Shown in pieces: positions 19,904 to 20,290 of a DNA stretch of 64,000 bases. Numbering within the stretch: position 1 is the stretch's first letter; every line of letters begins with the position of its first letter. The position numbers and the translations under genes were made by a program. The stretch is from Eledone cirrhosa (lineage: Eukaryota): contig OZ024740.1 in NCBI GenBank assembly GCA_964016885.1, positions 189,348,001 to 189,412,000 of the forward strand. Direction: 5' to 3'. The notes beneath the pieces were generated by a model. The model did not search any database. It had not been told where the DNA came from and worked only from the letters and a program-made list of their open reading frames with translations.

Positions 19904-20290
19904 ATAAATTAATAAAAATAATGAATAAAAACAAAGAAACAGTTCCTTATATTAAAAAATTCATCATTTTACCATCGTTTCTAGGATATATATGTGTGTG
20001 TTGGTATGTATATCATATAGATCTATGTAAAATTTTTACAAACTATCAGAGGGAATATACATACCTACACATATATATGCTGTCTTCAGAAATAATAATT
20101 ATTTCTGAAGACAGCATATATATGTGTAGGTATGTATATTCCCTCTGATAGTTTGTAAAAATTTTACATAGATCTATATGATATACATACCAACACACAC
20201 ATATATATCCTAGAAACGATCGTAAAATGCTGAATTTTTTAATATAAGGAACTGTTTCTTTGTTTTTATTCATTATTTTTATTAATTTAT
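19904..20290. repeat. 387-bp near-perfect palindrome (193-bp arms, 1-nt centre at 20097)
   Basis: The arms are reverse complements except for two mismatches I could see (TCATC vs GCTGA; ACCATCG vs CGATCGT). ORFs 19843+ and 20594- share the same peptide as a result. Confidence 0.97.
20100..20229 (+). ncRNA. Putative minimal type I hammerhead ribozyme with a long stem II
   Basis: Stem I UAUUU/AAAUG. Core CUGAAGA at 20105-20111. Stem II AGCAUAUAUAUGUGU..GGUAUGUAUAU / AUAUACAUACC..ACACAUAUAUAUCCU. GAAAC at 20213-20217, palindromic loop GAUC, cleavage triplet GUA at 20222-20224. The base of stem II is a C-A mismatch. Confidence 0.65.

Follow-up and report, generated by a model that had tools for sequence, protein, structure and literature searches.

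Within the 64,000-nucleotide stretch of the Eledone cirrhosa genome analysed here (the window), a 387-bp palindrome is the core of an insertion made of two head-to-head pseudo-LTR (pLTR) ends of a young, Hydra-clade Penelope-like retrotransposon. Taken alone, the locus is what elements of this known class ordinarily produce; the pattern across the family is a useful new clue to mechanism, with hundreds of minimal products that share two starts, near-strict pairing and one stop at base-level regularity and thus permit direct tests, in the in vitro system already available, of how Penelope-like elements (PLEs) work.

Features of the insertion and its surroundings (positions within the window)
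Feature	Position	Strand	Remark
Left (TA)n-rich target array	19529..19771	.	
Whole insertion	~19772..20290	.	two head-to-head pLTR ends, long left and short right; outer limits blurred by a few TA bases
Tail between short (+66) and long (~+200) 3' ends	19772..19903	-	~130 bp, outside the palindrome
Left arm	19904..20096	-	pLTR with hammerhead motif; loop III is GAUG through a change at 19973
Axis	20097	.	two 5' ends meet, each at -7 relative to hammerhead C3; no extra G
Right arm	20098..20290	+	pLTR; begins at -7 and has the short 3' end
Type I hammerhead motif	20098..20231	+	cleavage site predicted only
Stem I, 5' strand	20098..20104	+	
Core CUGAAGA	20105..20111	+	
Long stem II domain	20112..20212	+	
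GAAAC	20213..20217	+	
Palindromic loop GAUC	20218..20221	+	
GUA triplet	20222..20224	+	predicted cut 20224/20225
Private stem I change	20230	+	right arm
Right (TA)n target array	20291..20351	.	followed by (GA)n
Next exon of the host CUB-domain gene	27295..27486	+	previous exon ~53 kb left of the window

The two arms, each of 193 nt and separated by a 1-nt spacer, form the longest of 1376 inverted pairs within the window and differ at exactly two positions (19973/20221 and 19964/20230). The dimensions given in the earlier note, 387 bp with 193-bp arms and two mismatches, were recovered, as was its placement of one mismatch in the stem III loop: the 19973/20221 difference makes the left loop GAUG, where the family norm is GAUC. 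The axis had been put 3 nt upstream of stem I, but the stem I of the family begins at 20098, so that the axis directly adjoins it. Overlooked at that time was the continuation of the left arm as element sequence for ~130 bp, to ~19772, which gives an insertion of 519 bp (~19772-20290; locus L048, scored as one long plus one short end). Describing the feature as two head-to-head hammerheads was accurate in that both arms carry the motif, but it missed that the whole is a retrotransposon insertion product with more than 200 counterparts and one arm longer than the other.

The right arm had 872 candidate matches, the best of the 40 that were scored being 97-100% identical, and a 30-nt piece of the hammerhead 3' core occurs exactly 3,406 times in this 3.0-Gb genome. 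Family copies carry, upstream of the hammerhead motif and on the same strand, an ORF with reverse transcriptase (RT) and a GIY-YIG-type endonuclease (EN), to which the hammerhead is therefore sense. Translations of broken copies show the RT motif YRDD and then an IVY..YIG EN, pointing to a single ORF with a C-terminal EN. At one locus (L114) the order pLTR-ORF-pLTR is preserved in tandem, with a unit of ~3.77 kb. The occurrence of pLTRs both in partial tandem, as at L114, and in inverted pairs, with a tail at one end, is as in EN-containing PLEs. Flanking sequences identify (TA)n as the insertion target.

Protein searches returned 9938 relatives at E<=0.001. The motif DKT replaces DKG in locus L100 and in seven of the eight top relatives checked, the other having DKS; L100 has RWR, and the eight relatives have RWK (four), RWR (three) or neither (one). 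A CxCX5C linker, CxxC and CxH motifs around E and N and the lack of CCHH were read from translations, CxxC and CxH also by script. The Hydra clade is marked by DKT, RWK, CxCX5C, CxxC, CxH, no CCHH and (TA)n targets (PMC8557442). By these motifs, RWK aside, the family would belong to the Hydra clade, its likeness to the published alignment having been judged by eye. Pfam gave no RT or EN match for pieces of this family, and for a related family, in L032, its GIY-YIG score was below the cut-off. That second Penelope-like family is represented by an 854-aa open frame with the same DKT and CxCX5C motifs (L032:1230-3791, minus strand). Assignment to the non-LTR retrozymes was rejected because their definition (10.64898/2026.07.22.740005) calls for head-to-tail tandem hammerhead units, and here two units stand head-to-head.

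We interpret the hammerhead, from its sequence, as the type I motif of this Penelope-like family, with putative ribozyme activity. The core features C3-A9, G12-A14, A15.1-U16.1 and NUH are all present; stem II, however, lacks the G10.1-C11.1 pair at its base and has C opposite A in nearly all family rows. Rfam yielded no match to the palindrome at the gathering threshold, and its E-value mode gave generic hairpin matches below threshold. The right arm, previously read as a complete hammerhead, does contain CUGAAGA, GAAAC, GAUC and GUA, but the second mismatch is a stem I change of its own, unique among 42 palindromes compared, which in a constrained fold shortens stem I from 7 to 5 bp. Nor is the hammerhead its minimum-energy fold: it lies 5.5 kcal/mol above the minimum, compared to 3.1 for the commonest family copy. 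With loop III altered in the left arm and stem I altered in the right, neither arm has the intact family form. The right-arm domain is strongly structured (z -4.35, 0/200 shuffles). The earlier description of stem II as simple repeats applies to the outer helix only, which is AU/GU-repeat-like; it is conserved family sequence and no expanded microsatellite. In 11 sequences of this young family, 97.4% of stem cells were paired, and five pairs had changed on one side and none on both, covariation that did not rise above shuffles.

The insertion lies inside an intron of ~81 kb, with exons of the CUB-domain gene on the plus strand at both sides; the exon in the window matches an Octopus CUB-domain protein at 99%. 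The proposal that an intact copy is sense to the host pre-mRNA therefore stands as to orientation, the right arm being sense to this gene, and fails as to the altered stem I. The claim that the full hairpin sequesters the ribozyme agrees with predicted folding energies, by which the whole palindrome (-287 kcal/mol) would out-compete the ribozyme fold (-27 kcal/mol). Whichever strand is read through, transcription reaches the antisense arm before the sense arm, making activity in host RNA unlikely; a hammerhead motif in such a transcript should be sequestered, the head-to-head pair would be unable to form a cis dimer, and the ribozyme at this locus is likely to be silent.

That the palindrome is a selected host regulatory element, either an intronic ribozyme switch or an ADAR or Dicer substrate for the CUB gene, is highly improbable. 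Its intronic position, sense orientation and very stable hairpin would suit such a role, but it is 99% identical to many dispersed copies, more than 200 similar palindromes exist, and each arm carries a damaging private change. An ADAR footprint in the arms was dropped, as single-arm changes had no A>G excess (9/115), a count that bears only on editing of the template RNA. The family-wide pattern does suggest that the element seeds near-perfect hairpins of ~190 bp at more than 200 sites, the CUB-gene intron being one of them, in an animal known for heavy A-to-I editing.

The ends of the element were sampled in the first 100 core matches on contig 1. The 3' ends fall ~66 nt after the predicted cut in 54 of these copies and ~200 nt after it in 37 (a bin of 190-285, as the alignment of long ends extends into TA); seven end elsewhere and two run into the ORF. 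The short and long ends are thus ~135 nt apart. An axis immediately 5' of CUGAAGA is shared by at least 208 palindromes, and 11 more belong to a tighter junction class, the classes being read by eye. Among the first 50 of the 208, L048 included, 43 combine one long and one short end, none is long-long or short-short, and seven have one arm broken or ending elsewhere. The second class gave long plus short in 10/11 by a crude test, and the 19 inverted pairs in the unbiased 100-copy sample comprised 14 long-short, two short-short and three others. The short end also terminates 34 of the 62 unpaired copies in that sample. Our search pattern for the tail-ORF junction was too strict and gave one match. 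Two pairs of loci, L209 with L210 (inverted insertions ~340 kb apart) and L167 with L168, are near-identical and probably represent segmental duplications or assembly duplicates.

The same regularity makes a fold-back library or assembly artefact scarcely credible. No contig in three contig sets of one public sample spans the locus, as an artefact might lead one to expect; yet the arms are unequal in a reproducible way (43/50), junctions vary from site to site, the arms differ at two bases, and head-to-head joints of the family occur in contigs of that public sample, which is possibly the source sample. Contigs X1-X3 join window positions 19954-19959 to 20235-20238, head-to-head joints that lie 10-14 nt past the predicted cut; they possibly mark a second, weaker stop just 3' of stem I.

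The 5' boundaries of the 100 copies, relative to C3, lie at -20..0 in 37, at +1..+80 in 21, and at -212..-21 in seven, while 35 copies run further. Many of the 37 are at -7 or -8, and SINE junctions account for 10. Over the whole genome, the base preceding -7 matches the template in 1955 copies, is G in 197 and T in 261, and is part of a SINE end in 345 (remaining cases with A or C lie outside this count). One base further in there are 123 non-templated cases, the first 100 of which, by eye, comprised 16 G, 17 C and 67 T; the G excess at -7 (197 G/261 T vs 16 G/67 T) is significant (p=2.9e-5). Of the first 30 G copies, not one extends into element sequence further upstream; four are ambiguous in that the G could be the templated base of the other arm, and five, by eye, have a triplet compatible with fold-back. 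Solo copies that border directly on (TA)n can have the extra G as well. The A of TCATT, a sequence that we take to be initiator-like, occupies position -7. In L1 and SVA, an extra G has been interpreted as a copied cap (PMC4859970).

Other sources of 5' ends were considered and set aside. Truncations at the predicted ribozyme cut site accounted for only 11 of 28 matches, none with G, and the cut was rejected as the main source, although the pattern fixes the length of a T run and hence undercounts. An intron ending at -7, as in D. virilis, was rejected for want of an AG acceptor there. Apparent 5' peaks at -213 and -433 were traced to divergence between subfamilies and to an inversion peculiar to the reference. 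These patterns suggest that the hammerhead is not used for cutting the RNA that gets copied.

We consider it fairly probable that one uncleaved element RNA is reverse-transcribed from two internal sites, with both cut ends of the (TA)n target as primers. An enzyme dimer would start one cDNA at each of the two sites, both cDNAs would run through the unopened hammerhead to the fixed stop at -7, and microhomology or end joining would then link their 3' ends. Were the two cDNAs made on independent RNAs with freely chosen starts, long-long and short-short pairs would be expected, and both are absent from the 50 palindromes. Against this model stand the two short-short cases among the 19 larger inverted pairs and the junction of the palindrome itself at 20097, which has no extra G. 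The identity of the stop is its weak step: given the rest of the model, the capped 5' end of the RNA, at the A of TCATT and marked by the extra G, is the likeliest stop, at about even odds. Of 30 loci with an ORF start, nine keep an intact upstream hammerhead; eight of these continue into the 3' UTR, one into a SINE, and none ends at -7, which means that long copies would need a strand jump or a multimeric RNA.

In vitro, extension of both target strands by a Penelope-like protein, a predicted dimer, starts from two sites inside the RNA, and the RNA that serves as template is unprocessed (PMC11167929). No difference between strands in the choice of start was seen in that work, an outcome that does not predict strict pairing. 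A stricter version of our model, which we offer tentatively, is obligatory asymmetric twin priming: a dimer on one RNA would give the long start to one target strand and the short start to the other, and both cDNAs could run off the capped 5' end at hammerhead stem I, yielding retrovirus-like strong-stop DNAs that fuse into palindromes, with the same end favouring capture of SINE RNA.

In 345 copies the pLTR is interrupted at exactly -7 by a member of one SINE family, compared to 1955 that are uninterrupted. These SINEs show varied truncations and 3-18-nt duplications, are sometimes two or three in tandem, and sometimes occupy both arms of one inverted pair (for example L002, L003, L005, L036, L140 and L208-L212). 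They were not accepted as proof of template jumping, because SINEs elsewhere in the window make similar duplications (8-18 nt in 6/8 rows). Since SINEs have entered this site many times independently, with target duplications, the DNA may be nicked at -7. On this view a palindrome would begin as a longer inverted insertion, which is cut at the ATT of each pLTR, either by the endonuclease of the element itself or by the LINE responsible for moving the SINE, and shrinks to its final form on rejoining. The resemblance of the two sets of duplications, the passage of all nine ORF-bearing copies beyond -7 and the reported ATT cleavage in an element's own pLTR (PMC11167929) speak for this explanation, which we nonetheless regard as rather unlikely, for it leaves unexplained the non-templated G, including that of the solo copies. 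Copies of the SINE within the window (at 3306, 12405, 33834, 40396, 47430 and others) end in an AATTAT-type tail. A young-looking LINE on the plus strand at 29220-31979, a 919-aa open frame with endonuclease, RT and a PHD-like finger, is a possible partner of the SINE. In the minus arm of L211, a further insert of ~85 nt, tRNA-like by eye, lies upstream of the SINE at -7.

The relationship between arms bears on whether one was copied from the other. Arms of one site differ by a mean of 2.6 positions and arms of different sites by 11.7 (42 of the 50 palindromes, with both arms intact); partner arms share subfamily variants and 11 private ones, and the closest of the other sites is no more distant (2.0) than the partner arm. 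Such shared variants could stem from one RNA, from two RNAs with a common source or from subsequent gene conversion. They would also be expected if a single cDNA ran to -7, folded back and copied itself, or if it primed itself on an antisense template, as proposed for rotifer Penelope, the second arm then being copied from the first. Self-priming has been proposed for head-to-head junctions (PMC3846280), and 11 sites have a junction that fits fold-back with a 5-nt loop. As a general explanation we judge this unlikely: most junctions have no room for a hairpin loop or contain inserted bases, the short end, present as it is in unpaired copies, looks like a true start site, and SINE inserts are unlike between arms at 4/6 sites, although they may have arrived after the insertion was made. 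Snap-back or antisense self-priming is possible at a minority of junctions.

Head-to-head inverted pLTRs, palindromic junctions and a tail of 30-40 bp at one end only are already in print for Penelope, rotifer Pen and Naiad (PMC3846280, PMC8557442). The present family shares that architecture but has a tail of ~135 bp and near-strict pairing, and both of its 5' ends terminate at the same base, where a G is often added, with no internal sequence. Hydra-clade elements, among them Hydra-1_Obim of Octopus bimaculoides in the supplement of PMC8557442, likewise have a C-terminal GIY-YIG-type EN, DKT, the CxCX5C linker, CxxC, CxH, (TA)n targets and a hammerhead near the 3' end; this family differs in its ~3.77-kb unit (vs <3 kb), RWR for RWK, clear pLTRs and a stem II domain of ~100 nt, and by eye Hydra-1_Obim has a different protein and hammerhead. 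Poseidon_Ac resembles it in two internal RT starts downstream of the hammerhead, extension of both target strands, AT-rich targets and an uncleaved template, but belongs to another clade and has adjacent start sites, and the available text of PMC11167929 reports no strand-specific choice or fixed 5' stop. Among the openly accessible papers and passages searched, none described strict pairing of long with short ends, a tail of 135 bp or a fixed stop marked by G; the origin of tandem and inverted PLE structures is described as an open question in PMC8557442.

Twin priming by L1 leads to inversion of adjacent segments, whereas here the two cDNAs overlap and duplicate one segment. Internal priming by the second target end, and an extra G taken as a copied cap, are features in common with LINE-1 (PMC4859970). 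The minimal type I hammerheads of PLEs (PMC4209133) have the same CUGANGA and GAAA core, a short stem III with a palindromic loop and an extra nucleotide after A9; the present motif differs in having no G10.1-C11.1 pair (C opposite A, followed by A-U and G-C) and a far longer stem II.

Other hammerheads were seen among the retrieved loci. At least six further type I families have a palindromic loop III (L121, L082 and L029, family a; L026 and L047; L053 and L088; L086 and L034; L102; L126; L148), one of them with a spacer of ~98 nt. One of these families has the same C opposite A, then a G-C pair, and stems that are variable yet paired. An older subfamily (84-89% identical to L114; for example L086, L090, L092 and L141) carries a second partial stem I with the 5' half of the core ~230 nt upstream of the hammerhead.
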